NCBI GenBank assembly: GCA_036172245.1
Contig: JAYWIR010000007.1
Location: 1,426,001-1,490,000 of the forward strand
Direction: 5' to 3'
Length of the DNA: 64,000 bases
DNA from: Raillietiella orientalis
Lineage: Eukaryota
Shown here: in pieces, positions 10,798 through 34,889 of the stretch
How the letters are laid out: each line of letters starts with the position of its first letter
Position numbering within the stretch: the first letter of the stretch is position 1
Notes under the pieces: model-generated
Seen by the model: only the letters and a program-made list of their open reading frames with translations
What the model was told of the DNA's origin: nothing
Databases searched by the model: none
Translations under genes and position numbers: made by a program

Positions 10798-12039
10798 AAC
10801 ACGGAAGGTACGCCATACCTCCAGTTTTGCGGATGCGACGGATGTAGGGGACCGAGAGGAATCTTCTCTTACTTTGGATACCACCTGGGTCTCGCATGGG
10901 AGGATTCAGGGCTGTCAATCCCCTGAATCCTTGCATGCTTTTGAACTTCGGGCGGGTTCGAAACAATTTTGATAACTACATTGATTCTTTCAGGTTTATT
11001 GAACCCTCAAGATTCGGGGTGGCACCTTTGCCATCCCGAATCCGCCCGAAGTTCAAAAATCCCACCATGCAGTCTTCTCCACGCGATCCAGGGATGGTGA
11101 TGGAGCGGCATGTGCAGCGGAATCCGGGCCGATGCAGCATGAGATGCTCGTGTGCATCTGGAGTCTCTCCTCGGTTATGAGTGCCGTCAAGGTCACTTGT
11201 GCTAGCGAATTCTTCTTTTCTGCCTCTCGAGATGAATCCCAGATATCTTTGGTTGTTACCGCTGGAATGATGCGGCCGAACGGAGTGGCGCCGGGATGCT
11301 GGAGACGTGTCTGTGTGAGGTTCCGCTCCCATTCCGATCGGTTCACTCTCTTTGGTTCCGGATTTGTGCAGAACTTCCGAGGCTTCCTCTGCTGGACGTT
11401 CGCATCCTTTTGCAGCGGACAGGGGACGCACACGCGCCGGCCCAAACGAAAAGGGCACCTCCTCCTGTCCCCAGGTAGCCCCGGTCTGCCCACTGCCAGG
11501 AGTGAGGGCCCCTCCGCGGGGCTTCTGTGCAGCTCCTCTAAAAGTCTCACCCTCTCGCCGCCTTCCTACCCTCAGCCTCGCAACAACCTGCAGGGTCTTT
11601 CTTCCTCTTGGAAATCTCCTCGTCTCCCTGTAAAGGTGCTCACGAGGGCGGCAGCTTCTGCGTCCTCCGGGGAGGGGGGGGGAACGCAAGTGCAAGGAAG
11701 AGCAGTGCGCCTGTGCCATGCACCTCAAGGCACTCGGCTGAGTTTGAAGGTGTTCCAGGTTGTTGGGGAGTCCTTCCTCACGGACTGCAGTACCTGGAAA
11801 CGGGAAACCTGGAAACCTGGAGGGAGATCCACAAAGCGAGCCCAGATATTACCCGTGTCTGTGATTCTCCCAGTGCGCTCGCCGCTGGAAATCGCCCAAA
11901 GTCCCAGGAAGACCGCGTGGGTGCCAGACACCCCACTTGCCGTAGGGCTGCTCCAACTACGGAAGAACGGCGACAGTGACCGATTGGCACGGTGGCAGGT
12001 CCCTTGCAAACTAGGCAAGCAGAGAAGAAGAGCATAGGG

Positions 12040-12330
12040 TGCTGCACCGCGCGTCACTTCCTGCATCCGCCATCCTTGTTGCCCTCCCCAAAGGAATTCT
12101 CGGATGGACCGATCGCCTCGAAATCCCACTAGAAAAGCTCGAGAGCCACGCGGGGTTGGTAGACGTCTCCGTGCTTCCCTTGAAGTGGGCGGCACCATTT
12201 GCTCCCGGTGACGCCGAAGGAGGAAAGGTAAACAACACGCCGTGTGGGTTGGGGATTCTACTAGACCGTTCGAGAACATCAAGGGGTAGGAAACAACGAA
12301 AGAAGGCGCGACTCGCAGGCCGGCCTCACG
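12040..12330 (+). mobile_element. Possible decayed RTE-type LINE RT C-terminal fragment
   Basis: GILGWTDRLEIPLEKLESHAGLVDVSVLPLKWAAPFA...SRGRKQRK resembles the RTE pattern G...DRI.NE.IR...V.DI....LKW.WAGH...R.RGR. Confidence 0.35.
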
Positions 12331-15300
12331 AGAAGGCAGGGATCAATGAATCAATCGAAGGAGAGAAAGGGACAGGGATCGCCGGTTACACCCGTGGCGC
12401 CCTCTGGAATCTGCGTGCGATGCCAGCGGACATCCTCCTTCGCTCTGGCGTCCCACGAAGGCCTCTTTGTCGCATCACTCCCTGCTGCGGAGTGGAGGCG
12501 TGTGGACCTCCTTCCTTGCTGCCGCTCCTCCTCGGTGCTCCGGGATGCTGCGATCCTCCCGACGCAATGCACGGTGGGGGTGACGAGGGAGGCGGGCGAA
12601 TGTTCCTTGTCCCGCCTGAAGCAGCATCGCAGCAACTCTTCGGCAGCAGTGCCTTCGGGACGAAGAGGAGCGGCCGCGAAGGTCGCACGCGCCGAAGGGC
12701 AGAGCCTCTTCTTTCATTCAGCTGAGGGGGACCGCAGAGCTGACCCGGTAGGTAAATCTCCAAGGAGGAATGTCCTGACATCCTGCGCGACAGAGCAGCC
12801 CTTCGGCGCGGGCACCCGGTGCCCGCCGCGTCAGCCGACTGATCCGTCCTCCACTTTCGCCGCTCCGGCTACGGGGCACGAGATCACCCATCATGCGTGT
12901 CGGTCACTGTCGCCTCTCCCTCTTAGGGGCAGGAGAGCGAGTGCTGCGGCTAGGAGGGCGAGGGTGAGGGGACTGGTTCGTGCCCGCTCCTTCCCATTCC
13001 CCCCCCCCCACTTCCTCTTGGGGGGGACCGCTCCCAGGTTGTGTGGGCGGGAAACACCAACGCTGAGATCCAGGTGCCTCCTGTCGCCGAGCGTTGCAGC
13101 TGTTCGGGAGGCAGGAGACCCATTCGCCGCAGCGCCTTCATGCTGCGCCTGGCCCGTGGACAGAGAGCTGCCGGGTGACTCCTCTCTCTGTCACCCGCAG
13201 TGGGATTCCAGAAAGGTGAAGCGCCACCTGGAGGTCAACTGCCGGAACCGGGAAGGCTCTGAAGTCCTCGGTGCCGCCGGGGGTTTTTCTGAGACCTGCG
13301 TCCTTGCAGGTTGGTTCAACCATCTGTCCTCTACTGCAAACCCTCCAAGCTCTTCCTCATTCGCTCGTGGCTCTTCGAGCTTCCGAGCGCATGCGCATGC
13401 AGGGGACGCGGAGTGAAGTCGGCCGGAGTTGGACGGCAGGGCCGGCTTGCTGCAGCCTCGAAGACTCCGCTCTGGATAGCAACAGCAGCAGCCACCTCAC
13501 TACCTGACCCCCGACCTTTCTCTGTGGGAATCCGATGCCGGGGAGATTGGTTCCTCAATCTCCACAGCTCCCGAAAGAGAGTCTGCTGCTCCCTGTTCTC
13601 GAGCACCACGGAGGGGCTCTCCGGAATCTCTGCCGTCGCCACACTGCTGAACCACGAGAGGCGGCAACCAACCGCCGGTTTGCCTCAAGTGGAGATGGCG
13701 GAAAACGCTCCCTCTCATCGAAACCACGGGAACAGGGAAGTATGTGGCCTTGACCTCTGCCAGAGGTACCGAGTCCCTCCTGCACCTGCCAGAGGAGTCT
13801 GTTGCCCTCCAGGGTGTATGGAAACGATCCGCCCGTTCCCGAAGGGCATGTCCCGCCCCTCTCTTCCCTCCCAAATGGATGCTATCTTTTCGTCGATGGA
13901 GGGGGCGCTGAAGCCTTCCTCTTCTTGCCGTTCGCCACGACAGCCGGACGAGACCGGGGAAGAGCAAACGGGAAGGCGCCCTGGGGTGCAGGAGGCGTCC
14001 GCTATTCCGAGGACTCTCGCTCACTTTCGAAGGCGCGCTCCGAGTATCCCGCCGCTCGGAGGGGGCGACTTGCTGCCCTCCAGGCTTCTCGCCGCGCCCT
14101 CTCGCGGTAGCGATTCGTCCGTCGGCAGTCCGAAAGCGAAAGGAGGAGGAGGAGACGTCCCTTTCCCGCAGAACGAGAGGGGTTCGGGATGCACGGCGCG
14201 GGCGAAGTGGGGAGCCGAGGGGTATTTTGAAGTGCCCTTCCGTACGTAGCTCAGCGCCGTCTGCTGGGGCGCCGCGGCAGCCTCGCGCTGAACCCTGGAG
14301 GCGAGGAGTAGCGGGGACGCCGTCTCCATCGCATCCCCTCTTCAGGATGAAAACGATCACACTCCTGCTGCAAGGAAGAAACTGACAGCATCCTGGATGG
14401 GGGAGTCCTCTGCGATCCCTTCCCGCTCACCCTTCCAGCTTAAGGGCGGTTCTTCTGCTCCCCTTCCACTTCTGGCCATGAGCCCCTCGCCAGGCAGCCT
14501 TCCCACAGTCAAAGACGCCTCCCGAACTTGGACCGGTGCGGCTAGTGACCTTTGTCTTTCTGGAACGGCCGCTCCTATGGAAACGCCCTGGAATGACCGG
14601 GTGCGAACAGCGTAACCCGGCAATCACGTTCCAGATTAATTCATTTGCTTGTCTCGATGACCCGTTCCAGGGACCTCTGACAGCTGACCTGAGAGCGGCC
14701 TCCCCTCCCGGCTGCTTCTCGTGTCGTGGGGGGGCACCTCTTCTGTGTATGCTGACTTTTTGTAATGGACTTCTCGCTCAACCTTTGACTCCGAACATCC
14801 GGGTCATTTTTTTTTGGAAATCAGTAGACTCGTTACAGCAGGAAGGGAGGTGCCACATGGGCCGGCCGAAACAGGAGGGACCGTTTCTTCGCTGGGGATA
14901 CAGATCAGTAGGAGAGGAGTCAGTCCGCTTACGCAGCACCGGGGCAAGGGAAGGGAGAAAGGGGTCGCGCTTTGGATTGGTCCGCGCTCCATCTCCCTAG
15001 GACCTCCTGTCGCACCTCTCCGCGTGGCAGCGAGCGACCGCCGACCTTACTGGTAGGGGGTTCTCAGGGCACGGAGAACTCGCATCCAGGAGATCCCACC
15101 CCTCGTGAGTAGGGGACTCCTCTCGGGCACTCCCCCGCTGGGGTGCCACTCGGGGCCTCCCTCGGAAAACGCCGACGAAGCACCGGACTGCCGCCCCCCT
15201 CCGCGGGTCCTGAACAAGGTCTCCGGGCACGAATTCGCCCTCCGGCGCTCAACCTTTTCCTCCTCTCGCCGCCGCTGCAGACATTCCGGGTGGCCTCGTG

Positions 15301-17000
15301 CTGGGAACCCGGCGGGAACGCGCAGGACGGCGTTGCTGACCTCGCCCTTGCCTGCTCGAGATTGCAAAAGTCGCCGCTCGAGGGGATGCACGAGCACGCC
15401 CGAGGAGGGGTGGCTGTCTCGCGACCTCGCCTCGGGGACCGTCCGCCACGCGCACCCGCGCCCTGTCCCCCACGCTAGTGAACGTCAGGGTGCTGGACCT
15501 AGCCCGGAAGCGGACTGCTCCTTACGAACTGGGCCACCGCTTTCCCTGTCCCCCACGGAGGTACGCGTGCGCTCGTCGACCTGAAGGCGCCCACGGGGGC
15601 TCCTAGGGGCCGGAAGGACGCTCTCGAGGGCGTGGTCAAAGTCGTCCACGTCGCTCCCACAGGCACGGCCTGCTGACCTCCGCACAGCTGCGCGCGTGAA
15701 GAGTGAGTCTACACGGGAGGGAAAAGCGGTGAGTCGTCCGGGAAGGCCGTCAGCGTGGGGGCACGCGAGGACGAAGATCCCGTGTCCGCCTACACCCTTC
15801 CAGCTCCAGGTATAAGCTGGTACCAGAGAGGACGTAGCACCCGAGGCTGTCACATCGACGGCCCTGCTCCGTGAGGTCAGAATGTAGGGGTGTCAGCAAC
15901 CGGTGGGCAGGTCCGTGCCGGGAGCTTCAGAAGCCGCGCCAACGCCAGGGTCTCTGCCGACCGTTGTGAGCGGTACACCTGCCGCTTTCTCGGCGGCCGG
16001 GTACTTCCCAATACAGGCGCAGAGGTCGCCATGGAAAGCGGAGGGCGCGGGACCGTGGGCAGGGTAGTCAGGAGGAGAGGAGCGGGAGTGCTCGCTCGCG
16101 CCGCGGGCAAGAACCAGTTTCCTTCAGGAGGGCCGGGATTGAAGGACTCTTCTCCAGGGATGTCCTCGTCGACCTTCCGCCCCCACCTTCTCACCACGGT
16201 TCTTCAACCGACCGATGTTGTCAGGCGACAGCGTTCGGGGAGAGGGAAGAAGGGGGGAGAGAAAGACGGACCGCAAGCTCGCACCCGCGCCGTCGCCTCC
16301 GAGTTGACGCATCGAGGGAGGCGGTAGTCATGAAGACGGACTCCGGAGGCGACCGCTCCTTCCTCCACACCGCAGCAGGGCTCTCCGCCGCACATACGCG
16401 AGCTCACGTCTGCGCTCGACTTGGGGAGGGGGAGAGGGGGGAGACTAAAGCGGGGAAGGAGAAACCGTGCGTCGTTGCTGTGGCAACCTCTTCGGTTGCC
16501 TCAGGACGGCAATCAGCCGTCCGATGGAGCGTACGGCGCGATCGAGTGTAGGGAACCCCAGCGCCTTCCTCCACAACCGCGTCTTCCTCCTTTGCTCCTC
16601 CTCCTACCCGTGGCCCATGGCCCCCTGATGACCCAGTTCCTCCCCGATGAGCACTCCCCGGGCATTCCCTCGAGGACTCGCGGAGAACGTCCAAGGCGGA
16701 GACGCTCCCTTCACTGAAGCCCCTCATCCCCTCCTCTTCCACGTCATCCATGCCTCCCTCCCTCTCGTCCGCCGCTCCGTTCCGGGTGCGTCCCCCGCCG
16801 CCGCCTTCGAACGGCACCACCGTCCCGTCAACAACACGCACGCAGGCACGCTCACGTTCACCGGAAAGAGAGAGAGAGAAAGAGATGCGGCTGTGGGAAG
16901 GGGGGGGGATGAGAACACGGGCTGCCGGAAGCGGCAGCCCGTGCCCCTGTGGTACGCCCTCTGGCGAGCACGGGTGGCTGGCTGGCAGTTGAAGCTCGCG

Positions 17001-17285
17001 ATGGCTCCGAGAAGGACCTGCGCCCTCGTCTTCGTCTTCCAGCTGGCGCTCATCGCGCTCTTCTGGGTGTTCAGCACGTACGACTACGGCGGATCGGGAC
17101 ATGAGAGCAACGGCACCACCGCCAACGGGCACGCTACCGCCAACGCCTTTGAGGGAGCGGCTGGAGGTGCGCATCATGCGCACGTGGGAGGGAAGGAGCT
17201 GCCACCGTGGGGCACCGTCGCCGGGGTGCAGGCCGGGGACCGTGGCACCCCAGTCACCCACGCCACCCTCACTGCTCCCGAACAG
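17001..17285 (+). CDS. Alternative first coding exon (1A) of the Rh ammonium transporter
   Basis: MAPRRTCALVFVFQLALIALFWVFSTYDY has the Rh TM1 pattern (Q..LF....Y-D) and parallels exon 1[23 protein letters not shown]. It ends at a strong donor CAG|GTAAG and joins in frame to the acceptor at 22731 (EQ|DVHQM). Confidence 0.6.
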
Positions 17286-20200
17286 GTAAGAAAGGGGCGC
17301 TCCGCCCGTACCCGGAGCGGCATCGATCTGTGCAGGAGAGAGGCGGCCTTTCGGGAGGCCTCAACGGATACGAGGACCTCGCCGTCATTGAGGTGGAAGA
17401 GAGAGTGTCCCGGTCCTACGACTCTTACGCAAGTAGGTGAAGGGGACGAGAGGGGGGAGACTCCGCAGCCAGCGGGGCCGCTTCCCCTACGCGGCTGCTC
17501 CCCGAGGGCAGCCTTCGCCTGGCTTCCAGGAAGATGGCGGTCGCTCCCAACCAGTCTCTTAGGGGAAAGGGGAGGAGGAGGGAGGGGTGGGTGAACTCCC
17601 GTCTCCTTCCGCGTGGTAGCAGGAGGTGCATGCGGCCGGCGCAGCAAAGGGAGGAGAGGAGCCTTCCCCCCCGTCGGAGCGGGGGTCCAAGAATTGGCGG
17701 CACCGAAAGGGGTGCTGGTGAACATGCCAGCCGCCTTCCAGGAGGAAGGAAGATCCAGGGGAAGCGAAAGGCACGTTAGGGGTCCTCGAGAAGGACAGCA
17801 TGGAGGAGGGGGGAACCTGGACGGAACGAGGGCAAGAATTCGGGAAAGCACTGGTCGAAGGGGGCTGCGGATGCTGGAGGCTGCGAGGTTCCGGGATCTT
17901 CCGTCGCGCGCCCTCGCGTGCGCAACTGCACGGGATGGGGAATGTACCCCTCCCAGGCGGAAGGAGGGTTCTCCCGAGTCTTCCGGGTCGGGCGCACGTG
18001 ACTCTCGCGTCAGCTGCCACAGGGGGGGGGGGGGGGTCTCTGCGGCCGCTCTCTTTCGTCCTCCACTCTCTCCTCTCTTAGAGAGAGGCCGAGGGCGTCT
18101 GCGCCCCCCGAGGTGGAGACACGGCAGCGGGCGGCCCACGATCAGGGGAGGCGACTCGGCGTCACGGCGCGGGATCGTCCGGCTCCCGGTGACGCCCGGG
18201 GACACTGGCGCAGGAAGATCCGCGAGCGACGATGGGGAGGAAAGGGAGAGCGGGGGTGGGGTGGGTCCCACAGCGCCCAAGCGCCTTCAATCCTTCGCTC
18301 CCCCCGCATCTACCGCAGGGTCCGTCCTGCCTCACTCTCGCTGGGAGTCCACGGGGAGCTGTCCGATGCTCCCTCGTCCGAAGGGGAGGCAGATGTCGGC
18401 CCAGCCCTTGGGGGACCGGCCGACCTCCTCCTCTCAGCCACGCGTTCCATCCGGCCAGGTGCACCCCCGCCAGGTTGCTGTGGAGGTGCGACCTCGCCGG
18501 CCGGTCAGTCACGTGATCCGCCGCTCGCCTCCTCGACTTTTCCGGAGGTCTTTCTTCCCCAGGGCCCCTGACCGAGCCTTCCGGGATGCCCTCTCGTGGG
18601 ACTCCTCGCAGGAGGAGGAGAAATCCGCGGCGGCGCTCTGGGAGGCGGCCGCCTCTCCCACGAGCTGCCGCGGGATACTCGACTCAAGGAAGGGATTGAG
18701 ATGCGGGCTGGGCGCAGCTTCCGGCAGCCCTCCTCCCCTCTTCTTCCGTTCCTTCTCCAGGACGTCGCGGATTCTACCGTGCGTCCTGCCGTCCTATCCG
18801 CAGCGAACCGATGGGTGGGAGACACGGAAGGAGGAGGGAGATTCGATTGGCAAGGCGAAGAACGCGCTGGCGCCTCCCTGCATATGTGTAGCCTCCTCCT
18901 GTGCGTGCGGCCGCTTCGCCCTCTCGGGAGAGGAGCTCCTCATCTTTCTCCCTCCTTTCTCCTCCTCCCAGCCAGAAGATAAAGAGCAGGTCTTTTCCTG
19001 ATTCCTTCCCTCCTGATTTTACGAGAGGAGTGTCTGACGGCTCCCTTCTCCCTTCTCCCCGCCGTTTGCTTCCGAGGACAGCGGGATCGTCAAGAGGGAA
19101 TATCCGGTTTCAGAGAAGACGAGGAAGGAGAAGAGGCACGAGAAATCTCGCGGAGGGAAGAACTCTGCGGGGTCGGCGGGGTCCCAGGGCAGCCAGCCTA
19201 CGGGTGCGCGACGCTCGCGGCGGTCGCGTGGCTTCCAGAGAGCCGTGTCCGACGAGCCCCCTCCGAGGTGGTGGGCCGATCAACAGGCAAAGATGGAAGG
19301 TCACGCGGTTCGCAACCGCTTCCATCGGTCTGGCGACCAGCGGAAGCGGCTGTTGCGCCTCCGGGTACCGTCTCCGCTACCTCTGCCACCCAGGTAACGT
19401 CCAGTCGGGGCAGAGACCACCCTCAACGAATTGCCAGTTTCCACTTTCCCTGGTTTCCAGGGAGACTAGGCAGTTGGGGGCGGGCAACGGAATTTCTTCC
19501 CATTTTCCTGGCTTTTCGGCACCTATCAGGCTGCTGCTGCTGCCGCCACCACGAATCTCCGATCGTGGATGCTCGCCGTGCAGCTGCCAACCTCTTTGCT
19601 TCCTGAGGTTGCCACAGAGCTCGGAGCATATCTGACCGATAGGGATCTCAATCCGTCCGGCAGGGAAGTACAAAATGCCAAGAGTTGGTCCAGGGGGATA
19701 TCGGGGGAATACAAACAACGCGAGTGCCTCCAGAGAGCCGTGCCGCTGAGAGAAGCTGCGGATGGAGACGCTCGGGTCCCTCCCCTTTCATGAGGCTGCG
19801 TGTGCAAGGCGGCAGGGAAGGATGAGGAAGCAGGTGAATGTAAATAAAATGCAAATGCCTCTTGAAGAGCGCCCACGCCTCTCGTCTCTGACTCGCAGAT
19901 GAGATGCCTGCATTTTTAGTACCTCGACATCCCCTTGCAGTGGCTTGGGATGCGAAGAGCCGGTTTCGCTGCGAGCATCCAACAACAGATGGCATTGTGG
20001 AGTTGGCGGGTCTTATCGCACCACAGAAGGGAGGGGGGGGGAGGATAAGGAGGGAAAAAAAAGGGCAGAACTTCGAGTGTGGTCGCGCAGGGATAGGGAC
20101 TTCCGTTTCTCTCCGCCGCTTGGCACTCAGGGACTTGTATTTTCATGTGGGCGTCCTAGCGGATGCAGATGAAGAGGTCCTGAAGACGCTCACGATACGA

Positions 20201-20776
20201 TCAAACGGCGGCCATTAGCGCTCCCGCACACCCACACCCACACAAAAAAAAAAAAAAACAGACGCGCGCCTGCCCGGTGCACAACTGCTTTGAGCCGACT
20301 GACCGTGACCCTTGCTGCGGTCGGACCCTAGGACAAACAGAGGTCCGCGAGACCCTAGCGTGCCGGCTGGGAGAAAGTGTCAAGCCAAAAGCGAAGTGTG
20401 CAGTGAGCAGAAGAAAAAAAAACTGAAACGAGAGATGAATGTTTTCGTAAAATTCAAAATGGAAACTGTCCAGGACCGAAACGAATCCGCGAGAGAGGAG
20501 ATCGACACGTGACAACAAGAAAGAGAAGCCATGTGTAGGAATTCACGCAAAGCTAGAAATTACGCGCGTAATATCTCTTGAATGTTTGCTTTATGCTTCT
20601 GCTCTTTCTCTCCTCCCCTCCCCTTCCTCGATTTTTTGCCGAATATTTCGCAAGGCTGAACGTGTGCTAAGATTCATAAGAAGATTTCTGAAGGAAAGGC
20701 GAGGGGGAGGGGAGGGGAGATAGAAACGATTTATCGCAGATAACTCGTGCTGTTCTCGTTCTAATTTTTCTTGCGC

Positions 20777-20827
20777 GTCCAGCGGAGCACACGGGAAGTC
20801 CAGCGGAGCACACGGGAAGGAGCACAC
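20777..20827. repeat. 21-bp tandem duplication (gtccagcggagcacacgggaa x2 plus a partial copy)
   Basis: Exact duplication read directly. It is flanked by two copies of tctcgttctaat. Confidence 0.8.
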
Positions 20828-22140
20828 TTCTCGTTCTAATGTCCCCAAGCACGGTGGGCTGTATCTTCCCGCAGCACCAAAGCACGTCATTTGCAGTGGC
20901 TTCTTTCCCTTGCGCGTTTCCTCAGAGGTGAACGAAGAAAGCGCGATTGTTCCGACGAGCTGAATGTACAGTAAGCGTCACCATCGGCTTCTCTAGAAAG
21001 AAGTGGTTAGGCAGGCTTGCACTGAGACTGGGTCTGTCTGCCGGAAAGCAGCATCTGCTCTCCAGAGCCACGCTCCTAGGATTCCTTTTTCCCGCCCCCT
21101 TCAGTCCCTGTTCCCTCTTCCCCGCTCCTCCCCTTACCCTGTTCCCTCGATACTCGCAGAAGCTGTGATGTGCCGTCTACTCTGAAGACAACACAGGAAG
21201 ATTTCATCTGAAGCGGACAAGAATCTAGAGACGAATCTCGGTTGCCTAGCAGCGGGCAAGGAGCCCTGCTGGATGCATGTGGCTGAATCGAGGATTCCAG
21301 CATGGCTCGTACGCTATCTTCGACGTTTCGCCTTCCACTCTTTTTCCTTCCCTCGCTCTTCCTTTCCATTGAGCACATGCGTCCTATTAAGCCCCCTCCT
21401 CGGCACAGACACTCCTTGGAGAATGACATCGGAAGGAGAATCCAAGCTCCTTTCAGTGCGAAAAAAGAAAGAAAATGACTACCCCGTGGGTTCCGGAAAT
21501 CTTTCTTCAGAAGGAGAAAAAAATTCTCGCGACCTGTTCGGGACCCATCGCTGCTTCAACGGCGATCCTCTCTGCGGCGAGGAGGAGGCACGCCAGAAAG
21601 GCCGCTTTCTGCAGGCACGACCTTCCTGATCTTCATCATCTTCGAGGAGAGAGCCCTCAGGAATAGTATTGATCAAAGGGTTCTCTCCGACCACCTCCCA
21701 CTCCAATCTTCCATCCCCCGTTCCCAATGAGCTCCCGTGGAAGAGAGGAGGGAATCGTCTCCAGACCTCTGAGGGGATATAGTGTCTCCTGTGAGACGGA
21801 CGTCTTGGTCTGGATTATAGATGACGGGCCGGCGGACACTCCCTACCCCACCTGCGGGAGGTGCCAATCGGGTCTCAGGGACCGGCCGCGAGGAAGCGCG
21901 CCGAGCGCGCTTGCCTTATCTCCTCTTCTAGGCTACCCTCGAGATAAAAAAAAGAAAAAGAGAAGAAAAAGGTGCGCTTCCTGGAAGCCACACTTCTCGA
22001 AAGGGGGACGTCCCAGTTTTTGTTTGTTTGTTTGTTTTTGTTTCTTTGTGTTACTGATCTCGTGTCGCTTGCCCCCTGTCGGCGACCGACGGGTGGCGTG
22101 AGCGCCGGTCGCCGTGGTGCCCTAGAAAGAGAAGTTCTCC

Positions 22141-25100
22141 ATGCTGAAGCTGCAGCTCGGGCCGAGGGAAGAATGCGGAGGCGGCTGCTGCAGGCGGCTG
22201 CTCACTCCACGATTCCGTCACGTGTTCCTGCTGTGCCAGCTGGGATTCATCGTGCTCTTCGCCGTCCTGGCCGTGTATGATCAGGATGGAGACGCCCGGG
22301 ACCCCCTGCACAACAGTCATCCGGCCCTGTGGGGCCCTGCGGCGAACTGGAACATCGTCACCATCACGCCCAAACGTAAACATCATATGGGGCGTGCGCT
22401 ACTCTTCGTCCGGGATTTGGAAGAAGGGTACTGGAGGGAAAGGGGGAGAGGAAAAAAGAAGTGGGCAAGGGAGCAGGGAAAATGGGGTTGGGACAAGCAC
22501 GAGATATCCGGATACGCACGGAAGGTGGTCTCTGTACCTTTGCGTTCCTCCCGCGACGGCAGCCATCACCAGCCTCCCGTCCCCCAAGGTCCCTGCTCTC
22601 TGCCCAACCTCCCCCTTCCCCCAGCAGCGCATCCAATGGGATTTCCCGTGCGCCGATGTCGCGTCCCGCTCCTCCTCTTCCCTTCTGTCCTTCCGAGCGG
22701 CCTGGCGCTGACCCCGCGGCAGTGTTCCAGGACGTACATCAAATGATCTTCATCGGCTTCGGCTTCTTGATGACCTTCCTCAAGAGGTACAGCTACAGCG
22801 CGGTGGGTCTGAACCTCCTGATCGCCGCCCTACTCGTCCAGTGGGCCATCATCTGCCAGGGACTCTTCAGGATGAGCGGCGGGTACTTCTCCGTGGGACT
22901 GCTCTCGTAAGCACCTCCCCAGCCATCACTTCCTTCTCCCTTCCCGCTCCTCCTCTCCCTCTTCCCACTGCCCCTCTCTTCCGCCGCCTCCATTCATCCT
23001 CGCCAGGAACTCCCTTCTGAAGCAGGAAAGCGGAGAAAGACGAAGAGATGCCGGAGATTGCGAGTCTTCCTCGTGCGCCTCCCGCACCTGCTCGCGCAAC
23101 CCCGAGAACGGCGAGAGAGGGAGCAGGGAAAAGGATCTTCGCGGCATCCCCAGGGGGAAGACCCAGGGAACGATGACCGGGTCTGCCGTGGTTTTCCCCT
23201 CACAGGTTCCTCCTCTCCCTCACGATTCTCGTGAGTCCTGGCTGGACAAGACTGGCGGTCCCAGACCTCCCTCGTCATCCCTCCCTCCCCATGGGCATCC
23301 TGGAAGACGTACCCTGAGCCTTGGACTCCCTTGCGGGGCCGCAACCCGCAGCGACAGCAAATCCGAAGAGGTCCTTCCTGGTTCCCAGGCCCACTTCCTG
23401 CCCTCCCTCGCGAACCCTGTGCGGGCTGCTCCTCGTTCCCTCCACCTCGCCTAATCGATCGGCCCCCTCCGGCATGGCCGTGCCTCCTCCTCCAGAGCCC
23501 TCGGGGCATGTCTTTCAGGCTGCTAAACGCTGACATCGCAGCGGCCGCGGTGCTCATCTCCTTCGGCGCGCTGCTGGGGACGACATCGCCATTGCAGCTG
23601 CTCATGATGGCCTTCCTGGAGATGGCCGTCTTCGCGACCAACGAGCACGTGCTCTACCACGTCCTGGAGGTAGGAGGGGCCAAAGGTGCCCCCCCCCCGC
23701 CCACTGGTAACGCACGTCAACCCCCTTCCTCCTCCGGCAGGTGGCCGACGTCGGAGGGTCCATCGTTGTGCACACGTTCGGGGCATACTTCGGCCTGGCC
23801 GCTAGCTTCGCTCTCTTCCGCCCGGAGGCGTGCGGCCACCACAACGAGGAGGCATGCGTGCGCTCCGACATAACTGCCATGATAGGTGAGCTGGGGAGAC
23901 GAGTCCCCCCTCCCGTCCCTTTCTCCTTCCTGCTGCTGCGGCAGGGAGGGAGGAGCGAGGTCAAGGGGGTGGAGGAGCGCTGGGCGAAGGGGAGCTGGGT
24001 GGGTAGAGGCGAGGGGGCAGGGGCCTCGAGACCACTGTGGCCTCCGAAGATCACACCCCAAGCTCCCGGGAACCTCCGCGATCTCTCCCTCGAGCGCCTC
24101 TCGGCCAGGGGCCGGACACGCTCACAAGACCACGGCGGGGCGCTTCCTGTTTGCAGTTTCTCAGAAGAGGAAGAGGTCCCTGAGGGCACGCCTCCAGAGT
24201 CACAGGCATTGGGGGGAGGAGAGGCCAAAATTTCTCCACCCCGTCCTGGCGTCGACAAACCCCCTCGGGCCGGCTGACTTGCACTTTTCTCAGAGGAGGG
24301 CGGAGGCCAACTGGATAGAGGCCGCTGGCCGCTTCCGACCTCCCCCCGGCAAGGAGCCGAGATACCGTCCCTCACTCCTTCCCTTGCGCTTCTGTAGGTT
24401 CTGAGGGGATTTTGTGGCCCGACAGACCGTACGGATGTGAGCCGGAGGCGAGGTTTTCCTGAGTGTGGAGGTCCTCAGGGGAGAACCCTCATTTCCCCCT
24501 CCCTTCTTCCTTCTCCTCCTCCTCCTCCTCCAGCTCGCAGCTGTTTGGCTCGGGCTCATCGTGCCGCTTTTGCCAAAGTCGACGGCTCGCAATCGTGGAG
24601 GTCGTTCGTCGGGAGAAGGGAGGGGGATGAGGAGCACGGAGAGCGTCGAAGGATAACGATAGGGGGAACGGATCAAGCAAGGGAACGGGCACAGTAGGGT
24701 GTGGGAACGACGGAACGCGACGGAGGTCCTCCACCCTGCTCGATCGGCCTGCCGTCCGTTTCCTGGCCGATCTCCGGGGTTCCGTCGCGTTCCTTCCTTC
24801 TGGAGAGCTGCGCTGGCAGTGTGATGCCTCCGGGAGAGCGGCAAATCTGACTGACAGCTCAGAGCGAGATCCCCGAGCCGCTTGAATTTTTCCACTCCGC
24901 CGCGCTCTCTCCGCGCCGCATATCCGCGTGATTTGCACGAAGGGCGGGGAGGCCCTTCGAGGAAGAAGGCACGGATCTCCGCAGCAGCAGCCGTGCGCTG
25001 CGCCCGTTGGGAAATGAGGATCCATCCGCAGGCTTGAGGTGGCACCTGTGCCTCGGAAGGTCGGCAGCGCCCGGCCGGACTCCAGAGGGAAGCTGGATGC

Positions 25101-28100
25101 GTCCTGGAGCGCGAAGAATGCTCCCAGCCCCTTCTCGGCGAGGGATCGAAGGCACCCGGGAGCCGCTGGGACAGGCCTTTCGGCCCGCTCCGTCGAGCGC
25201 CGAGACGGTGCGACGCGCCGGGAAGCTTCGATTGTCTAGAGGGGAGTCGCTGCCCTCCGACGCGGAGCCCCGGGGGCAGAGGGGCGCGGTCAAAGGCGCC
25301 CTCTCTGCCTGCTTTTCCGCTCCTTGCGTGCCTCGCCAGGGCTGGATTCCCCACTGCGCTGTTGCGGAAACCACGAGAAGCCGCTGTCTTCCCCAGGGAC
25401 TCTCTTCCTGTGGGTGTACTGGCCGAGTTTCAACGGAGGCCTGGCGTCCGGGGACGAGCAGACGCGGGCCATCATCAACACGTACCTGTCCCTCGCCGCC
25501 TGCACTCTGACGACCTTCGCGACGTCATACGTGGTCAGCAAAGAGTCCAAGCTCGACATGGTACACGTGCAGAACGCCAGTCTTGCGGGCGGGGTCGCCG
25601 TGGGAGCCGTCGCCAACGCAGCCATCAACCCCTACGGGGCGCTCATCATCGGGAGCATCGCGGGCATCGTGTCGACCGGCGGCTACCACTACATCACGGT
25701 AATTTGCATTCCTCCAGGCCGGAAGCTGCCTCCTTGTCCGGGGGAAGAGAAGGGGTCCCCCTTCTCTTCCCCCGGACGCGCACCCCCGGAAACGACGCAC
25801 GTTCCGCTACGGTCGCCGGCCACATGGGCGGCGCGGAATGTCCTTGCGCTTCGTCCACAGAGTGCCGCGGTGGAGGGAGGGGATGGGGGAGCAGCAGCAG
25901 CCGTCGGACTGGTGCACCCCCGCCCACCGGCGGAAGCCACCAGCAACCTTCCAGCTCGCTCGACTTCCTCTCCCCGTCCCGTTCGGAGCCGAGCGGCTGG
26001 GTCGAACGGGTGACCCCGACGGATACGCTCCAGCCTCCGCACCTCTCACGCGCACTCGCCACCGCCCCTGCTCGCAGCCCGGCAACCCAACGCAGAAGGC
26101 GAGTGGGCGCTCACCGCCCACTCGCCTTCCTCCCGATTCGCGATTTCGCGGAAGAGGGTAGCGCCCTCGGGGCGGGCGAGGCAGGCTCTGGCAGCTCTCT
26201 CCCCCGCCGGGCTACGTGCTGATACCGCTGCTCCGGACCGTGCGACCCGCGGCCGAGCCTTTCCTCGACTCAAGCGGTCCGCCCGCTCAGGCGGACAAGC
26301 GGGTTCGAAACTCGTCGAGGACGACTTCCGGTCGCTGAAACGCCACTGCTTTCCGTGCGTTGTCTTTGGCGCCATTTCGAACGGGCAGAGGCCGCCGCGC
26401 TGCGGGTAGGCGGAGCGGCGCGGCGGCCGCTGCGGGTGCGGGGAGGAGGCGAAGATGGCGACGCGGCGCGGAGGTACTCGGGGCTACCTACCAAGGTCGA
26501 AGTCTCGAAAGATCATTGAAAAATAAAAAACTGCAACAAATAAATGATAAATAAATAAAAAATTATAAATGAATGTGTTTGCTGTATGAAATAACACATG
26601 TGTTTGTAAATAGTTTGATAAAAATCATAAGGATTGTAAGAACAAATATATGTGCTCATTATCTATATTTATATATACACACTTATATAGATTAATGCAC
26701 ATTTCTTGCATATTTCTTAATATTTATTGATATAAATATTAAGTTTCTAAACAAATCATGAAATAATTCATGATTTGTTTAATATATGTATATATATAAA
26801 CATAATGAATATATTGTTTGTTTTTTATTTTCTTTCACTGTTTTGAATTTTCACAATGATTTTTTATTTTTCCAAATTCGATACCTATATATTCACTTGT
26901 TAAATTTGTAAATATATAGTAGTATAGATAGGAAACATATGTCTTTTTTAATAGTCTTCAACGTATACATTAATGATTCATTAATACATATGATGAACAG
27001 AATTAATAACATGTATGTGGATAAATATTAATAAACATGCATGCTAAAATAAATCTGCACATTGATCTCTATATAAATATATACTTATGTATAATAACAT
27101 GTATATTCATTTCTTATGATATTGAATAAGTATTTTAAAAACACACATATATAGATGTATATTATTACTTACATCAATAAGTGATAACGTGTGAAAAATG
27201 TAAATTAATATATATATATAATAAACACATATGAAACCTCTTTTTTTAATTTTATGATATGTAATAACATTTATTGACATAAGTATTAATAAAAATGTGT
27301 GTTAAAATAAATTTCTTTATTAATCCATATATAAGCATATGCATTATTCCCTATGTGAATATAAATATTAATCACTATATGAATGTATGTGTAATGATAT
27401 ATACATAAGACAACGTGTTTGAGGTGATCGTTCGCGATTCGACGGAGCCTTTGCGCACGGTTCGAACGCAGCGCGCCGAGTGCACCGGTGGCTTTCCGAC
27501 GTTTCCGCGGCAACGGCGAGCGGCCCGCCACTCCGTCGCGGGTGAGGTACGCTGTCGCTGCGAGCGTACGGAGTTGCAGCACGCGAGCCACGAGCGTACG
27601 AATGTCGGATTCTGCGCTCGCCTCGCCTCGGCGATTCCTTTTTGAGACTCCAAGCCGTTTCTCCCGTGCGGCCGAAGCGGGGACCCTGGGTCCCTCACTC
27701 GGAGGAGATGCTGACGCCCGCAAAGAGCACGTGATTCGCACGCGCGCGGTCCTTCCTCTCTGAACCCGTCTCCCAGCACGACCGTCTCCCAGACCTTGGC
27801 ACGTTCCGGAGATGTGCCCCGGGTGCGGCGGCGCTCTCCCGGGAAGCACGCCCCGTCTGGAGGCGCCGAGCTCCGCATGCTGAAACCATGTAGGGATCGA
27901 GCTGGGATGCCGAGGAGCGCCGCCGTGAACACGTGGGATGGGCAAGGAACGGTCGATGAATCACCAGACGCATCCCTCTGTGGGGAGGGGAAAGATTTAG
28001 ATGGATTTCGAGTCCCCTGCTGTTGTTGTTGTTGGGACTTCTCGACCCCTCGAAGAGTGGTCATGAAGCTCCTTTGGCTAAGCCCTCGGAGAGGGACGTG

Positions 28101-31100
28101 CAGGTGGCAGGTGCAGCCAAAAAAAAAAAAAAAGGACTCGGGACGCGACGGTCGACTCGAAAACGGGGGGACGCAGCCATTTATGTGGAGGATCCACGGG
28201 GGGAACCACGGACGCGTTGCGGCAACTCTTGCACGCCACGCCTACCGTAGTTCCCTCCCCCATTCCCCTTTTCCACGTGGACCCCCAAGGAAGAGCGATG
28301 CATTTCGCTGCGTCAGAATGGCTTCCCCAAGACTGATGATGTCACCGGTGATGGATGAATTGGAGGACCTCTCTAAACTCCAGCCCAAACCTTTTAGAAC
28401 GATTGCCTAGCGGGTCCCCGCGCCCACTGCCCGCAGTCGCCTCCGACGCAAGCGCAAGACCGGCCCCTCGGCGGACCGCGCTGGGTCCGAGCACGCCGCT
28501 GTCCGTTGCGCGTCTTTGCGGCGGCGCCTGCTAAGGATGGGGATGGTGCCAGGAGCGGTCGGTGGCCAAGAGGCTGGCGGGTTGGTCGGCGCATGGTCCG
28601 GAGGAAGGAGGATGCCGTGGGGTGATATCAAGTGATCCCTTAAGCGGAACCTTTTCGCGCTTGCGTGCGCGGGAAGGGGAGGAACGGGAGCCGAGGTGGC
28701 CCCTGGCCCGTGGCATTCTCAGCCGCACCATCTCCGAGCCGGATGCTTCTCGTTCCTCCCCAGAACGCAGGGGCGTGTCTCAGCGCTGGTTCACCGCAGA
28801 GTCGCCCTGCCTGCAGGGTTCCCGCATGCGGGCAACGCGAACAAGCTGAGTCCAGGTGGGCAATTCAAGGCCCCAGCGTCCTGTCCGACGGTTCTTTCCA
28901 GGAACGCTCGACGTTCCGGCGAGAAAAAAACACCTCCTCGATCTGTTGGTGCACACAGTGTGCGATGTGTACACGTGACGTGCATTTGCCTTCTGCTCGT
29001 GTGACAAAAACGAAAAAAAGAAAGAGAGAGAAAGAAAAAAATGGATGAATGCAAAGCCCTGAGAGACAAAAGTGCTGCGGAATGTGAAATTCCAAAGGGC
29101 GACGAGACGCTGCTTTTATAGGCTCTCTTTGATCACCGATAAAGTAGCGAGCTGGTTCCCCCCCCCCCTCCCCCGCTTTATTTTATTTTTTTTTCTTTTC
29201 TGGCAAAACACGGAATACCTTCCCTATCCTTGCTTTCCTTTTTTTTTGTTCGGTCGTGTGATTTGAAATGGCGGGTGCAGGACCGAGGTCCACGAAACGA
29301 AACCCTTCCGATCGATCTGCTCTTGAAACAGCCATCGGCAGGGAGCAGACAGCGACCGCCCCGCAGGCGGGGAAGAATCCTCAAGTATTCCCTGTACGTT
29401 TCAGCCTTTCATCCTGAAGAAATGGAGGGTGCACGACACGTGTGGGGTGCACAACCTCCATGGAATACCCGGAGTGTTGTCTTCCTTGATCAGCATCATC
29501 GTTGCTTTGACTGCCCGAAAGGAAGAATATGGTTACAAGTGAGTAATCACGGCTACTCACCAAAGGTGAGGGGGGGGGGGCACCCGGATAACGCGGGATG
29601 TGCGTTCCGCGTTATACGAGCCCAGTGGGCGTGATTGGGTGGTATCCGTAAAAGACATAAAATGCATATTTTAAGCAGTGGAATATTTCCCATTTTCGTT
29701 TGAGGCACAACGGAAAAAAGAGAAAAGAGACGGAAAGTGCTTATGTTTGGCCTTCAACTTGAAGTAACGAAAAGCGTTTCGAGTTTTGTTTATGTGTAAT
29801 CCTTTGGCACACTTCGCTCTCGACGTCGGAAAGCGGACCTTCGCGCGCACTTCTTTCACCCACGAAAGTTCGAGTGAAGAGGGATTTGACCCCCATCGAG
29901 TCATGCGTTCGCGTTCTGCTTAAAAACAGCTGAACTGACACTTCACCACAACATGGAAATTCATCCACAGAATCGCACGAGGCTGATTGGCCGCGTTATG
30001 CGAATCCGAGCCACACGGGGGTCTGCTGCATTTTGTAAATTGAATTTGGCTTCATGTGAGGGAGCGTCCAATTGAAAATTTGCTCAAATAATGCCATGCT
30101 GAGTACTTTCGTTGATTTAAGGAATTGCACGACTTTGCATTACCCCGATATTTTGTTATGGTACACACCACAATGAACCCCAGCAAATAACTGTCCAACA
30201 AATTCATGAAACCATCGCATAACACAAGCTTACAAAGGGAGGGACGTCCAAGAACACAAAACGGAAAGAAGGTGGCTTCTTCTCCCGGTGTTCCCTTTGG
30301 AACTTCGTGTGTTTGGTCGCATACTTTCCTTGACACGTGTTAAAGTACAATTAGGATACGGGTGGGAGGGGTTTGGGCTGCAGACAACCGCAAGCACGGA
30401 CCGCCTCAGATATGAGGAAGATGCAGCAACCATGTGCAGCAACAGTACAGCGATGTCTGCTACTCCTGAAAATCGATGGAAATCCTTTCTTTTCTGTCTT
30501 CGCAGTTCTTTGGGACGGTTCCACGCCACCCGAGGGTGGGTAATTCTTCAAGATAGGGGTACTCCGGGAGGGAGGGGACCGCCCTATGAATCCAGAGAGG
30601 ACTCGGAGTCCGTTCCTCTCACGCCTGGAGAGGGATCCCTGGAAATGGAGAACACCTCCATCCTGGTTGTCTCCGAAGGGGAATCCAGAAGGGAATCTCC
30701 TTCCTCATTCTCTACGGAGGACTCCCGGGAGAATCCGCTCCATTCCTTCATCTCTGAAGGGTACCCGGAAAGGATCCGATCCTGGAATTTCTTCTCCGGA
30801 GGGATCCTCGCAAGGGATCCGCTCCTGTTTTTACTCCTCTGAAGAGAACCCAGAAAGAACGCTTCCGAAATTCAGAAGGACGCAGCTTCCCCGAAGGGAT
30901 CGGCTCGCTTCTCTGAACTCTCTCTGGGGAAGTGGTGGCGACACACCTACTCCATCAGTACGACGGGGAGGGTTCCCCCGGAATGGGGAGTCCGCTCATT
31001 TACAACCGGAGGGGAAGATCTCTCACTCCTTGATTCCTGGGAGGACCCGAAGGTCGACTACCGTTTGTCCCGGTCCTCATCGGGGGCATCCGGTTTGAAC

Positions 31101-33094
31101 CGCTACCAGTGCCGCTCCGAATGAATGGAGGCCAACCTGCGTCATCTCGCGGGAGGAACTCGAAGCCACGACGCACTGCGTCGATTCCTTTCGGAGTATT
31201 CGAACCTGCGACGCTTGGTGGTGCCACACGCGGAGACCTCCAACGGCCTCCGACGCGGGAAATCAGCCGCAGGTTGTGCAAGATACTTTCAAGCTGGAGT
31301 CTCTCTTGGAACAACTGTCTTGCTCTTGGTCCCTTAGAATTAGCAAACAGTGAGCACACACGTAATCTCGTCCGAGATACCCTGAGGAAGCTGCAGTTTT
31401 GCTATTGACGGTTCCATCCACGGCTTTCACGAGCACCACATCAAAAAAACCTCTTTTCTGTTCAAACTCACAGGAAGCCACAACATGCTGCTCGACAGAA
31501 CTACGCAAGAGAATGGTTGATGTGGTTAGGCGATGCAAAGTTCATCTTCACAGGCTTCTTGAACAGCCTCCACGCTCTCCTTCTGGATGCCTTGGGATGC
31601 AAAAAAAAACAGGATCTTCTCGTTCCGCGTCGATACAGGACCGACCTAAAACGGAAACTGTCTACATTTTCGCCTTTAGATCTGACTGATTGTTCCACTG
31701 CTTCATCTTGTAAGGAGAGTTGGATCTTGATTTCCTGCAAGCCTGTGAAGCCAAAGCCAGCCACCTGCACCTATAGATACGATCTTTTGCCCACAGCGCT
31801 GGCACCAACAAAGTAGAGGGAACCATTTCTTCAACCACGTCTGCAATTGGACATCGGAGCTCCGAATTGCGGTACCCTCAGCTCTTCTAAGACGGTCAGC
31901 GGCCGCTGAAAGTATCCCTGATGGAGGCCGGAGCATCTTTCGCAGCAGGACCCGAGTCCGTCGCGAGGCCGGTGGAAGAGCACAGATGTGTAGACCTCTA
32001 ATTCCTGCCACTACTGACCAGCGCAGGTAGTAAAGGAGCATTGAACGCTGAAGGAATATGGGAATCCTGGTTCGCTGGTCAATTTCTCTCGAGGCGAGAA
32101 ATGTTGGACGAGATACGAAGAGATATTTTTTCTGTAAAGGCTCCCTCTACTGATCTCTTAAATATCCAGATGCAGTGATAATGCACCCGTGAAACCAACC
32201 ATCCGCTCCCATTCTGCGCAAATATTCTCCTAGGTTCGCGAAGTTCCATCACATCACACCACTGCAGCATCACAAAAAGTTCTTGCGAGGCCTGCGACAG
32301 AAACAATTCGCCTATTTTCTGGGCTACGAACATGAAGCCCATTGACGGCTTTGTGAACATAAAGTCATCACTTTCATCGGTATTTGCATTTAAAAATGCC
32401 TCGCATCCGGGAATCAAATACCTTTTTAATTCCCACCTTGGATCACTCGGCTTAAAAGATTTTTATTTGGAAGCTAAAAAACTAACTCTGCGTATACAGA
32501 CGAACTGTAAGATTTGGATACTTCCGTATTTTGCGATGGGGCACTTTTGCTGCTGGGCACGTACCAGTAGCCTTCCACCACGATTCCGAATTACAACCTA
32601 TTTCAGTCTTTTTCAAGTTTATCCTGCACGAGCTCCTTCAATGAACAGTGCGGAGTTCCAAGAGATCAAGGGTGACTGGCCAAGTTTGGAACCTGGATCG
32701 AACAGATCGGCCGAAACTCAAGCACTGTACCAGTTTGCTGGATTATCCATCACAATTGCAACTGCCATTATAGGGGGTTTATTAACTGGTAATTGCATAA
32801 CGGAAATCATTGGTTCTGATGGTAATTCCAGGTTTGCTGATGCGAATGAAAATTCTCCATCCGCCGTACGGAGAACTCCTATATAATGATTGGATCAACT
32901 GGGAAGTTCCAGAAGATCATGCAAATGGAAACACCGCTTACGAAGGCACAGCTGTGAAAATAAGTTCTCAAAATACAATCAGTAAGACCAGGACACAGAA
33001 TGTTCCTCTATTGTATCACAAACTATCTCCTAACATAGATGACGCAGATAATACAGATGCAATTAATCTTGTTTCTCTGCAAGCTAAAATGTGA
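22141..33094 (+). CDS. Rh50: Rhesus (Rh50)-type ammonium transporter. Exons 22141-22375, 22723-22906, 23519-23669, 23741-23885, 25397-25698, 29405-29538, 32607-32788, 32832-33094; 531 aa
   Basis: All introns are GT-AG and the 1596-nt CDS is open. Motifs: [92 protein letters not shown]; both pore histidines are present. AATAAA at 33188-33193. Confidence 0.93.
26165..27635. mobile_element. Fold-back / long-TIR non-autonomous element with an AT-rich core (Rh intron 5)
   Basis: The GC-rich arms 26165-26515 and 27425-27635 are degenerate inverted repeats with several colinear blocks; 26496-26515 matches the reverse complement of 27425-27443 at 17/20. They enclose ~900 bp of very AT-rich DNA. Confidence 0.55.
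29581..30030. mobile_element. Possible pogo/Tigger-like MITE remnant
   Basis: ataacgcgg/ccgcgttat hairpin at 29588-29615, a second ccgcgttat at 29991, and a right end cgggggtctgctg like Tigger TIRs. The left TIR is not clear. Confidence 0.3.
30100..32420 (-). pseudogene. Decayed Polinton/adintovirus-like DNA polymerase B gene (N-terminal region), interrupted by a SINE
   Basis: Minus-strand motifs in the expected order across broken frames: [53 protein letters not shown], then past the [13 protein letters not shown] (VIYADFE-like). Frameshifts and stops are present. Confidence 0.55.
30485..31259 (-). mobile_element. tRNA-derived SINE-like element (longest copy) with 7-bp target-site duplication GGAAATC
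   Basis: B box GGTTCGAAT (31198-31206, minus strand), purine tail at 30485-30500, TSD at 30478-30484 and 31258-31264. Homologous to 39180-39866 and 10082-10797. Confidence 0.75.
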
Positions 33095-34532: not shown

Positions 34533-34889
34533 TTAATTAACCAAAGATATTAAAGCTTGGACTAAATTTCCCCGATTTTCTCTCAACGTTCTTTCTGCTA
34601 CTGTTCGTGCTACTTCCAATTGTGACATTATAAGTTCCACATCCTCTTTCTTAATTGGAACTTTGGCTAGCTCTTTCTCTTTGGCTGCTTTTTCTTGTTT
34701 TTCCTTACTTCTACGGTCACCAATCAAAGTCATTGCTCCTTTAAAATCTCCGGTGGCAATTTCTTTTTCTTCTGCATAATCAGTAACCTTTTCCAAATCC
34801 GCCGCTCCACAGTCATGCTTGTGGGCCTTTTTGGGCCTATCTTCCACTTCATTATCAACATTTTCTTCAATGATACCGTCAGTTCCCAT
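34533..34889 (-). CDS. HYPK: Huntingtin-interacting protein K (NatA-associated); intronless CDS, 118 aa
   Basis: KHDCGAADLEKVTDYAEEKEI and the UBA-like tail EKELAKVPIKKEDVELIMSQLEVARTVAERTLRENRGNLVQALISLVN are HYPK hallmarks. Confidence 0.93.
   Translation of the reverse strand: MGTDGIIEENVDNEVEDRPKKAHKHDCGAADLEKVTDYAEEKEIATGDFKGAMTLIGDRRSKEKQEKAAKEKELAKVPIKKEDVELIMSQLEVARTVAERTLRENRGNLVQALISLVN

Follow-up and report, generated by a model that had tools for sequence, protein, structure and literature searches.

We analyzed a window of 64,000 nucleotides (nt) of Raillietiella orientalis DNA (GenBank assembly GCA_036172245.1, contig JAYWIR010000007.1, positions 1,426,001 to 1,490,000 of the forward strand; all positions below are those of the window) that carries a single metazoan Rh gene (PF00909) on the + strand. 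The gene has eight coding exons at 22141-33094, the first of which we call exon 1B, and a lone extra exon upstream, exon 1A, that likewise encodes the first transmembrane segment (TM1) of an Rh protein. Exons 1A and 1B end in different codon phases, and two AG dinucleotides 8 nt apart at the start of exon 2 would each bring one of them into the frame of the remaining Rh protein.

The body of the gene was placed by tblastn with homologous Rh proteins, after which the splice model was recomputed. Exon 2 (22723-22906, 184 nt) encodes TM2-TM3 and is followed on the same strand by exon 3 (23519-23669, 151 nt), exon 4 (23741-23885, 145 nt), exon 5 (25397-25698, 302 nt), exon 6 (29405-29538, 134 nt), exon 7 (32607-32788) and exon 8 (32832-33094), whose stop codon ends at 33094. 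The open reading frames (ORFs) containing exons 2, 4 and 5 match PF00909 with E values of 9.7e-7, 1e-7 and 2.1e-26 (28.3, 31.5 and 93.1 bits, the Pfam gathering cut-off being 23.2 bits); exons 3, 6 and 7 were located by tblastn, and exon 8 has a C-terminal match with E 4e-7. Exon 5 is 58-67% identical to the 120 matches listed, and the named ones among them are mostly Rh type A/B/C proteins from molluscs, annelids, arthropods and vertebrates. The full-length protein that begins with exon 1B is 45-53% identical over ~450 amino acids (aa) to the best Rh homologues, and exon 2 aligns with the structures of RhAG (7uzq_L, E 1e-19) and RhCG (3hd6, E 1.2e-16). HTFGAYFGL and HNLHG are conserved pore motifs of Rh proteins, and these histidine-bearing stretches are present in the spliced model, aligned with their counterparts in the homologues. 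By these matches the gene is one animal Rh (Rh50-type) ammonium-transporter gene. A tblastn search of both strands of the window found no other sequence resembling exons 2 to 8 and hence no second Rh body, and the collections searched hold no close relative of the gene, the best identities being 67% for exon 5 among the matches listed and 80% over 46 aa for exon 2.

The sizes of exons 2, 3, 4 and 6 are near what we take to be those of the corresponding human RHD exons. Exon 5 spans the equivalent of two human RH exons, presumably of 167 and 138 nt, which would mean one intron fewer in this gene. Exons 7 and 8 are separated by an intron of only 43 nt (32789-32831), which the model needs because the conserved C-terminal stretch sits in another frame; the remaining introns range from 71 to 3706 nt. 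GC content at third codon positions (GC3) falls along the gene, from 0.79-0.90 in exons 1B to 5 to 0.64 in exon 6, 0.37 in exon 7 and 0.33 in exon 8, and this gradient tracks the surrounding DNA, which drops from ~65% to 33-38% GC.

Exon 1A (17001-17285, + strand, 285 nt) lies ~5 kb upstream of exon 1B. It begins with an ATG at 17001, ends on CAG in phase 0 and encodes a short basic tail, TM1 (the best 19-aa hydropathy window covers residues 6-24) and a loop of ~66 aa that is rich in Gly, Ala, His and Thr and contains the N-glycosylation sequon N37-G-T. Its donor (17286-17291, CAG|GTAAGA) matches CAG|GTAAGT at 8/9 positions and is the best donor in the open frame 17060-17594, where no phase-1 GT reaches 6/9. 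The sole other GT with at least 7/9 matches, at 17432, is likewise in phase 0 and lies within background-like sequence. Directly upstream of the exon, a (GA)n run (~16866-16884) is followed by a short ORF (16885-16992) with its own ATG, whose stop codon ends at 16992, 8 nt before the ATG of 1A and in a different frame; this upstream ORF would be relevant only if transcription begins further upstream.

The DNA surrounding exon 1A is 62-66% GC and long open frames are common there, so that the open frame of 1A by itself proves nothing, and we therefore used two composition tests. In the first, the transmembrane part of 1A had GC contents of 0.48, 0.41 and 0.93 at the first, second and third codon positions, in keeping with the GC3 of 0.81-0.90 in exons 2-5, and no codon-position periodicity was found in the GC content of flanks and introns. 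The difference between third and second positions in this part of 1A (0.52) was matched by none of 24220 background windows of the same length taken from 12000-26000 on both strands with exons excluded. In the second test, codon log-odds were trained on exons 2-5 only, against trinucleotide frequencies in non-coding GC-rich sequence. Over its full length, 1A scored 0.22 per codon compared with a background of -0.73 (sd 0.18), a value that none of 7016 background windows reached. Its loop taken alone (17088-17285) scored 0.02, again reached by no background window (0/7306), and the stretch 17166-17285 scored -0.08, which 28 of 7566 windows reached. The other two frames of 1A always scored lower (-0.45 to -0.84).

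Scanning with 60-nt windows placed the end of this signal close to the donor. The score stays above the 95th background percentile over 17001-17270 with a single dip at 17151-17210, the windows 17181-17240 and 17211-17270 exceed the 99th percentile, and from the window 17241-17300 onward, right after the donor at 17285, the score is at background. On this compositional evidence we conclude that 1A is translated, or was until very recently, as an exon with a phase-0 end at 17285.

Exon 1B (22141-22375, + strand, 235 nt) starts with an ATG at 22141, ends in phase 1 and encodes a 27-aa tail, TM1 and a loop of ~31 aa without a sequon. It had been left out of the training set, and its codon log-odds of 0.08 was reached by none of 7186 background windows; the signal ends between 22375 and 22410, in agreement with its donor. 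That donor (22376-22381, AAC|GTAAAC) is weak, with 5/9 matches, and no donor in the 1B frame attains 6/9. Some 80-190 nt upstream of the 1B ATG lie an A-rich run, a T-rich tract resembling (TTTG)n and then TACTGAT (21945-22060). They may represent a simple repeat near the promoter, or else supply the pyrimidine tract for an acceptor such as TAG|AAAGAG at 22125|22126.

The relationship between the two exons was examined with a profile hidden Markov model (HMM) of Rh N-termini, from the initial Met to the QDVH motif, built from 92 of the 120 listed homologues; the other 28 had no initial Met or no motif within 30-110 residues. Against all 1503 six-frame ORFs of the window, the HMM ranked 1A (E 1.9e-5) and 1B (E 2.9e-5) first, with the next best ORF at 0.074, in line with the original prediction that 1A encodes an Rh TM1. 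Each exon encodes one strongly hydrophobic 19-residue window, with mean Kyte-Doolittle values of 2.44 for 1A and 2.61 for 1B. At the DNA level, blastn of 15500-19500 against 20500-23000 aligned the two exons over only 25 nt, at 84% identity, within the TM1 core, and showed no further footprint of a duplication, all remaining matches being low-complexity with E values of at least 0.03. Sequence similarity upstream of the two exons, which had been put forward as part of the case for a duplication, is not significant, as the two match at 15/24 nt and their spacing to TM1 differs by 13 codons. Because no DNA similarity exists outside the 25 nt, the upstream sequences give no evidence for a duplicated promoter, and because the similarity is so confined, the 1A copy must be old. 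Judged by profile and alignment, both exons are Rh TM1 first exons and 1A is an old, strongly diverged second copy, which keeps its exon-like signature despite having diverged from 1B in DNA.

TBLASTN of both first exons in related species had been suggested as a check. We sought counterparts of 1A in metagenome contigs, where 539 stretches matched by pattern and none was confirmed by tblastn. An exhaustive HMMER search of 1.84 billion protein representatives returned a single match to 1A, P0121 (E 6.6e-6). We rejected P0121 as a relative, as its six matching stretches align with the low-complexity loop only (query residues 52-76).

Both first exons face the same 3' splice region. A pyrimidine-rich tract (22655-22694, + strand) leads to the first AG (22696-22697), which stands in a GAG context (22695-22697) with pyrimidines at 18 of the 20 preceding positions; the exon start it defines, 22698, is in frame with 1A and keeps FQDVH, and the eight codons that it adds are not coding-like (-0.71, a comparison of low power). 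Downstream, CTGAC (22708-22712) is the only branch-point-like CTRAY motif within 80 nt of the 3' end of the intron. The distance from its A at 22711 is 11 nt to the G of the next AG, which we call AG1 (22721-22722), and 19 nt to the G of AG2 (22729-22730). AG1 gives the phase-1 exon start 22723 that 1B needs. AG2 is formed by the Phe-Gln codons TTC CAG and gives the start 22731 that 1A needs if it ends at 17285. The two have the contexts CAG|TG at 22722 and CAG|GA at 22730, each with 12/20 pyrimidines upstream. In the exon 2 frame, the sequence ahead of 22722 does not look coding (-1.08 for 22563-22721). Of the acceptors in frame with 1A, only AG2 stands in a consensus CAG|G context without adding non-coding-like sequence.

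The history of the two AGs can be read from Rh genes of other animals. With exon 2 as query we collected 80 Rh loci from metagenome contigs (maximum identity 80%), of which 79 had enough upstream flank. An AG stands exactly 2 nt before the F/Y codon in 34/79, which is the position and phase of 22723, and in the remaining 45 the frame runs on upstream, as in cDNA-like or intronless sequences. Since these 34 loci share its position and phase, AG1 is by this comparison the ancestral phase-1 acceptor, predicted to be used by 1B; this is consistent with the human RH exon 1/2 boundary (c.148/149), which we take to be the same conserved phase-1 intron. Counting each distinct acceptor context once, the 34 intron-bearing loci give 28. 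Among these the pyrimidine content of AG1 is ordinary (12/20 compared with a median of 13 and a minimum of 10), and the CTRAY A sits nearer to AG1 in our gene than in any of them (their nearest is 13 nt). The A at 22711 is thus a candidate branch point and may serve as a lead, in which case AG1 would be unusually close to it. The hexamer TTYCAG, and hence a second AG 8 nt on, occurs in 18 of the 28 contexts. AG2 therefore appears as a by-product of the Phe-Gln codons and is nothing special to this gene. None of the compared loci requires a phase-0 first exon, and the existence of such an exon is the only special feature of the gene.

One locus, L007 (4633-6177 of a metagenome contig from another animal), resembles the gene described here in that a single exon 2 is preceded by two first exons, both of which have an ATG and encode TM1 and a loop. 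On this AT-rich contig (36% GC) the first exons occupy 4633-4894 (HMM E 2.9e-7) and 5698-5881 (E 4.5e-10) and exon 2 starts at 5999, which places them 1.4 kb and 0.3 kb ahead of it, and the distal one has the longer loop. Unlike 1A and 1B, the two share phase 1 at their ends and each fits the one ancestral acceptor in frame, and exon 2 of L007 reads TAC CAA, which leaves no second AG. Use of both L007 first exons is predicted from sequence alone. L007 is the only one of the 34 intron-bearing loci with two TM1 matches, many of the loci being short on upstream flank. By this comparison duplicated first exons do occur in Rh genes, and it is the phase mismatch that sets the present gene apart.

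We next consider the proteins that each junction would produce; recomputation reproduced all the exon coordinates, phases, junction peptides and isoform lengths of the original prediction. Joining 1B to 22723 gives ...TPK-L-FQDVH and a protein of 531 aa, while joining 1A to 22731 gives ...APEQ-DVH and 545 aa, the terminal CAG of 1A supplying the Gln. As had been predicted, the crossed pairings shift the frame. With 1A joined to 22723 a stop occurs after 102 aa, the stop codon ending at 22746, 160 nt before the next junction; with 1B joined to 22731 it occurs after 141 aa, the stop codon ending at 23533, 136 nt before the next junction. Transcripts are exposed to nonsense-mediated decay (NMD) when a stop codon precedes a later exon junction by more than about 50 nt, and from these positions both crossed forms are predicted to be subject to it. 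N37-G-T of 1A is the only N-x-S/T sequon before DVH, and 1B has none, which upholds the predicted difference between the loops.

The claim that 1A is in frame only with 22731 does not hold. Starts 22698 and 22563 also fit the phase-0 donor, adding sequence that is not coding-like and giving proteins of 556 aa (with FQDVH kept) and 601 aa, and a start at 22126 would put 1A in frame with the 1B ATG in a 631-aa protein with two TM1 segments. Internal phase-1 donors of 1A can also be joined in frame to 22723, namely 17166 (GAG|GTGCGC, 508 aa) and 17241 (533 aa), which match the consensus at 5/9 and 2/9 positions. A passage of 1A through an unseen micro-exon had been named as a possible objection. 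Between 1A and 1B, tblastn with homologues found no hidden exon, the highest value in a codon-score scan was 0.21 compared with 0.32-0.86 within 1A, and Pfam found nothing on 16 long ORFs between 17177 and 22098.

Taken together, we give about an even chance to a scheme in which 1A and 1B are two real alternative first exons, the two AGs are used without coupling to the 5' exon, and the crossed forms are removed by NMD. Two transcription starts would yield two pre-mRNAs with a common 3' splice region, and each first exon would contribute the cytoplasmic tail, TM1 and first extracellular loop. Exon 1B would be joined to the ancestral AG1 (22723) to encode the 531-aa protein. Exon 1A would be transcribed and its strong phase-0 donor presumably joined to AG2 (22731) to encode the 545-aa protein. 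AG1 and AG2 would be used at some ratio regardless of the 5' exon, so that 1B with AG1 and 1A with AG2 would make protein and the crossed pairings, with their early stops, would presumably be lost to NMD. In transcripts that start at 1A, the strong distal donor (8/9) would outcompete the weak proximal one (5/9); a strong distal and a weak proximal donor is the arrangement that we would expect if the distal exon must skip the proximal exon. The 1A product would have a first loop ~35 aa longer, carrying the loop's only sequon, at which it may be glycosylated.

Several observations weigh against this scheme. A search for RNA sequencing runs with 16880-17290 listed none. The pair formed by AG1 and AG2 is the same one that occurs in 18 of the 28 other Rh contexts, and there AG1 alone keeps the frame; this implies that spliceosomes normally ignore AG2 and that 1A transcripts may mostly be spliced out of frame. 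Of the 120 listed homologues, 98 contain the motif by pattern (22 do not), and in every one of these 98 the residue before QDVH is aromatic, F in 94 and Y in 4; it is F or Y in all 79 loci as well. This position corresponds to F54 of RhAG (7uzq) at the outer end of TM2. The 1B isoform retains the aromatic residue, whereas the product of 1A and 22731, a putative channel, has Glu there and one residue fewer. The last 45 nt of 1A give no frame signal (-0.43 vs -0.48, a value reached by 1817 of 7816 background windows), and because they do not separate the frames, the phase at the 1A donor depends on the exact assembled sequence. The training set of the codon model was small, comprising four exons of this one gene. 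Finally, neither the metagenome contigs nor the 1.84 billion protein representatives yielded a relative of 1A, and the other in-frame, full-length routes given above exist for it. The predicted duplicated first exon with two isoforms is borne out as far as an old second TM1 exon that is coding-like to 17285 is concerned, and the loss of the aromatic residue tells against its isoform.

The alternative that survives best, although we consider it unlikely, is that 1A makes no Rh protein, either because its transcripts are spliced to AG1 and frameshifted, as noise or as an NMD-based means of lowering Rh output, or because 1A is a silent relic. Splicing generally favors the first AG, AG2 remains silent in the 18 Rh contexts that contain it, and the product made with AG2 is the one that lacks the invariant aromatic residue. 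The stop of the 1A-22723 form, 160 nt before the next junction, fits the NMD rule, and the failure to find relatives of 1A in the collections searched would suit a non-productive exon or relic. What speaks against this alternative is the coding signature itself: 95 codons would not be expected to stay exon-like, in DNA that has diverged from 1B beyond recognition, if the exon were never read in frame with a protein. Selection for the 102-aa, TM1-only peptide is possible, with nothing pointing to it.

We think it rather improbable that 1A is joined in frame to the Rh body along a different path with FQDVH kept, through donors 17166 or 17241, starts 22698 or 22563, or a small exon. The four sites all give full-length proteins in frame. 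Donor 17166 with 22723 would keep the invariant F and an ordinary loop length, with 61 aa from Met to QDVH compared with a median of 58 among the 92 homologues, and start 22698 follows the best pyrimidine tract of the region. Both internal donors are weak beside the 8/9 donor at 17285, however, and the codon signal runs past 17166, as the score of 17166-17285 shows. GAG acceptors are rare, the sequence that start 22563 would add to exon 2 is not coding-like, and the absence of any coding-like window between 1A and 1B argues against an unrecognized exon.

Distinctly doubtful, in our judgment, is the view that the 5' exon or its promoter dictates the choice of AG, 1A leading to AG2 and 1B to AG1, with both starts mostly productive. 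Such coupling might act through different branch-point use, given the unequal distances of the A at 22711 from the two AGs, or through the differing last bases of the exons (CAG in 1A, AAC in 1B) in the second catalytic step. Promoter-coupled acceptor choice was the mechanism proposed in the original prediction; we see no support for it, as the 3' splice region is identical in both pre-mRNAs and the same AG pair recurs in 18 of the 28 other Rh contexts, in which one frame alone makes sense.

We also attach very little probability to splicing of 1A onto the 1B exon at 22126 (TAG|AAAGAG), which would yield the 631-aa protein with two TM1 segments or make 1A a 5' leader of 1B. This route is in frame and full length, and the long T-rich tract with TACTGAT lies upstream of the acceptor. 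A thirteenth, N-terminal transmembrane segment would, however, invert the topology of the 12-segment Rh protein, and none of the 92 homologue N-termini has two TM1 segments, their distance from Met to the motif being at most 111 aa. Equally remote is the suggestion that the final ~45 nt of 1A contain an assembly error of 1 nt, or a polymorphism, by which an ordinary phase-1 junction to AG1 is masked. This is compatible with the lack of frame discrimination there and with the two phase-1 first exons of L007 but makes an ad hoc assumption for a sequence that bears no sign of error and in which frame 0 is favored to ~17270.

Alternative first exons, tandem acceptors and NMD-coupled splicing are each already known, and the proposed uncoupled use of two first exons and two AGs resembles three familiar arrangements. 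In UGT1A and the clustered protocadherins, several homologous first exons, thought to have their own promoters, encode the N-terminal part of the protein and share a common exon 2. There all first exons are of one phase and use one acceptor, whereas the phases differ here. In CDKN2A (INK4a/ARF), too, alternative first exons differ in phase ahead of a common exon 2. Both use the same acceptor there, exon 2 is read in two frames and the proteins are unrelated, whereas in our gene the frame would be kept by the 8-nt shift in acceptor. Tandem acceptors (NAGNAG and wider) and NMD-coupled splicing likewise involve competing close AGs, of which an out-of-frame choice leads to early stops. With a single upstream exon an 8-nt shift always changes the frame, whereas here each AG would be productive for one of the first exons. 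A limited search of the literature turned up no description, in Rh genes, of two first exons that differ in phase yet share one reading frame through AGs 8 nt apart, and no N-terminal Rh isoforms.

If the proposed use of both exons is correct, a duplicated first exon without the ancestral phase would have been rescued by a cryptic acceptor within the coding sequence TTC CAG, a rescue site already present as TTYCAG in most of the animal Rh genes examined (18/28 contexts). With its two donors and with AGs separated by only 8 nt, the gene would then be a small natural model for assessing how independent 3' splice-site choice is of the 5' exon, and it would show how much unproductive splicing one gene tolerates. 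It would also provide a pair of channel isoforms distinguished solely by TM1 and the first extracellular loop, and an isoform that has a sequon in its loop and lacks the invariant aromatic residue at the start of TM2 would permit a direct test of that residue and of the loop glycan. Should the choice of AG instead be coupled to the 5' exon, the gene would be a natural case of long-range matching between a 5' exon and a 3' splice site that keeps one frame for two first exons of different phase. If 1A is used in neither way, this is an ordinary Rh gene with an upstream relic or non-productive start.

The window as a whole alternates between AT-rich (32-40% GC) and GC-rich (62-70%) blocks. An interspersed direct repeat at 30518-31259 and 39257-39865, 89-97% identical over 145 and 332 nt, has one copy in the sixth intron of the Rh gene. 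An uninterrupted ORF on the - strand (34536-35018), tail to tail with the Rh gene, encodes the HYPK UBA domain (PF19026, E 4.2e-18). Roughly two thirds of this ORF align with arthropod huntingtin-interacting protein K at 66-72% identity, a weak hint that the source animal may be an arthropod. Farther downstream, also on the - strand, a 662-aa open frame at 44017-46002 contains many leucine-rich repeats (LRR_8, E 3.6e-68, six stretches) and is probably a single-exon gene for a leucine-rich repeat protein.

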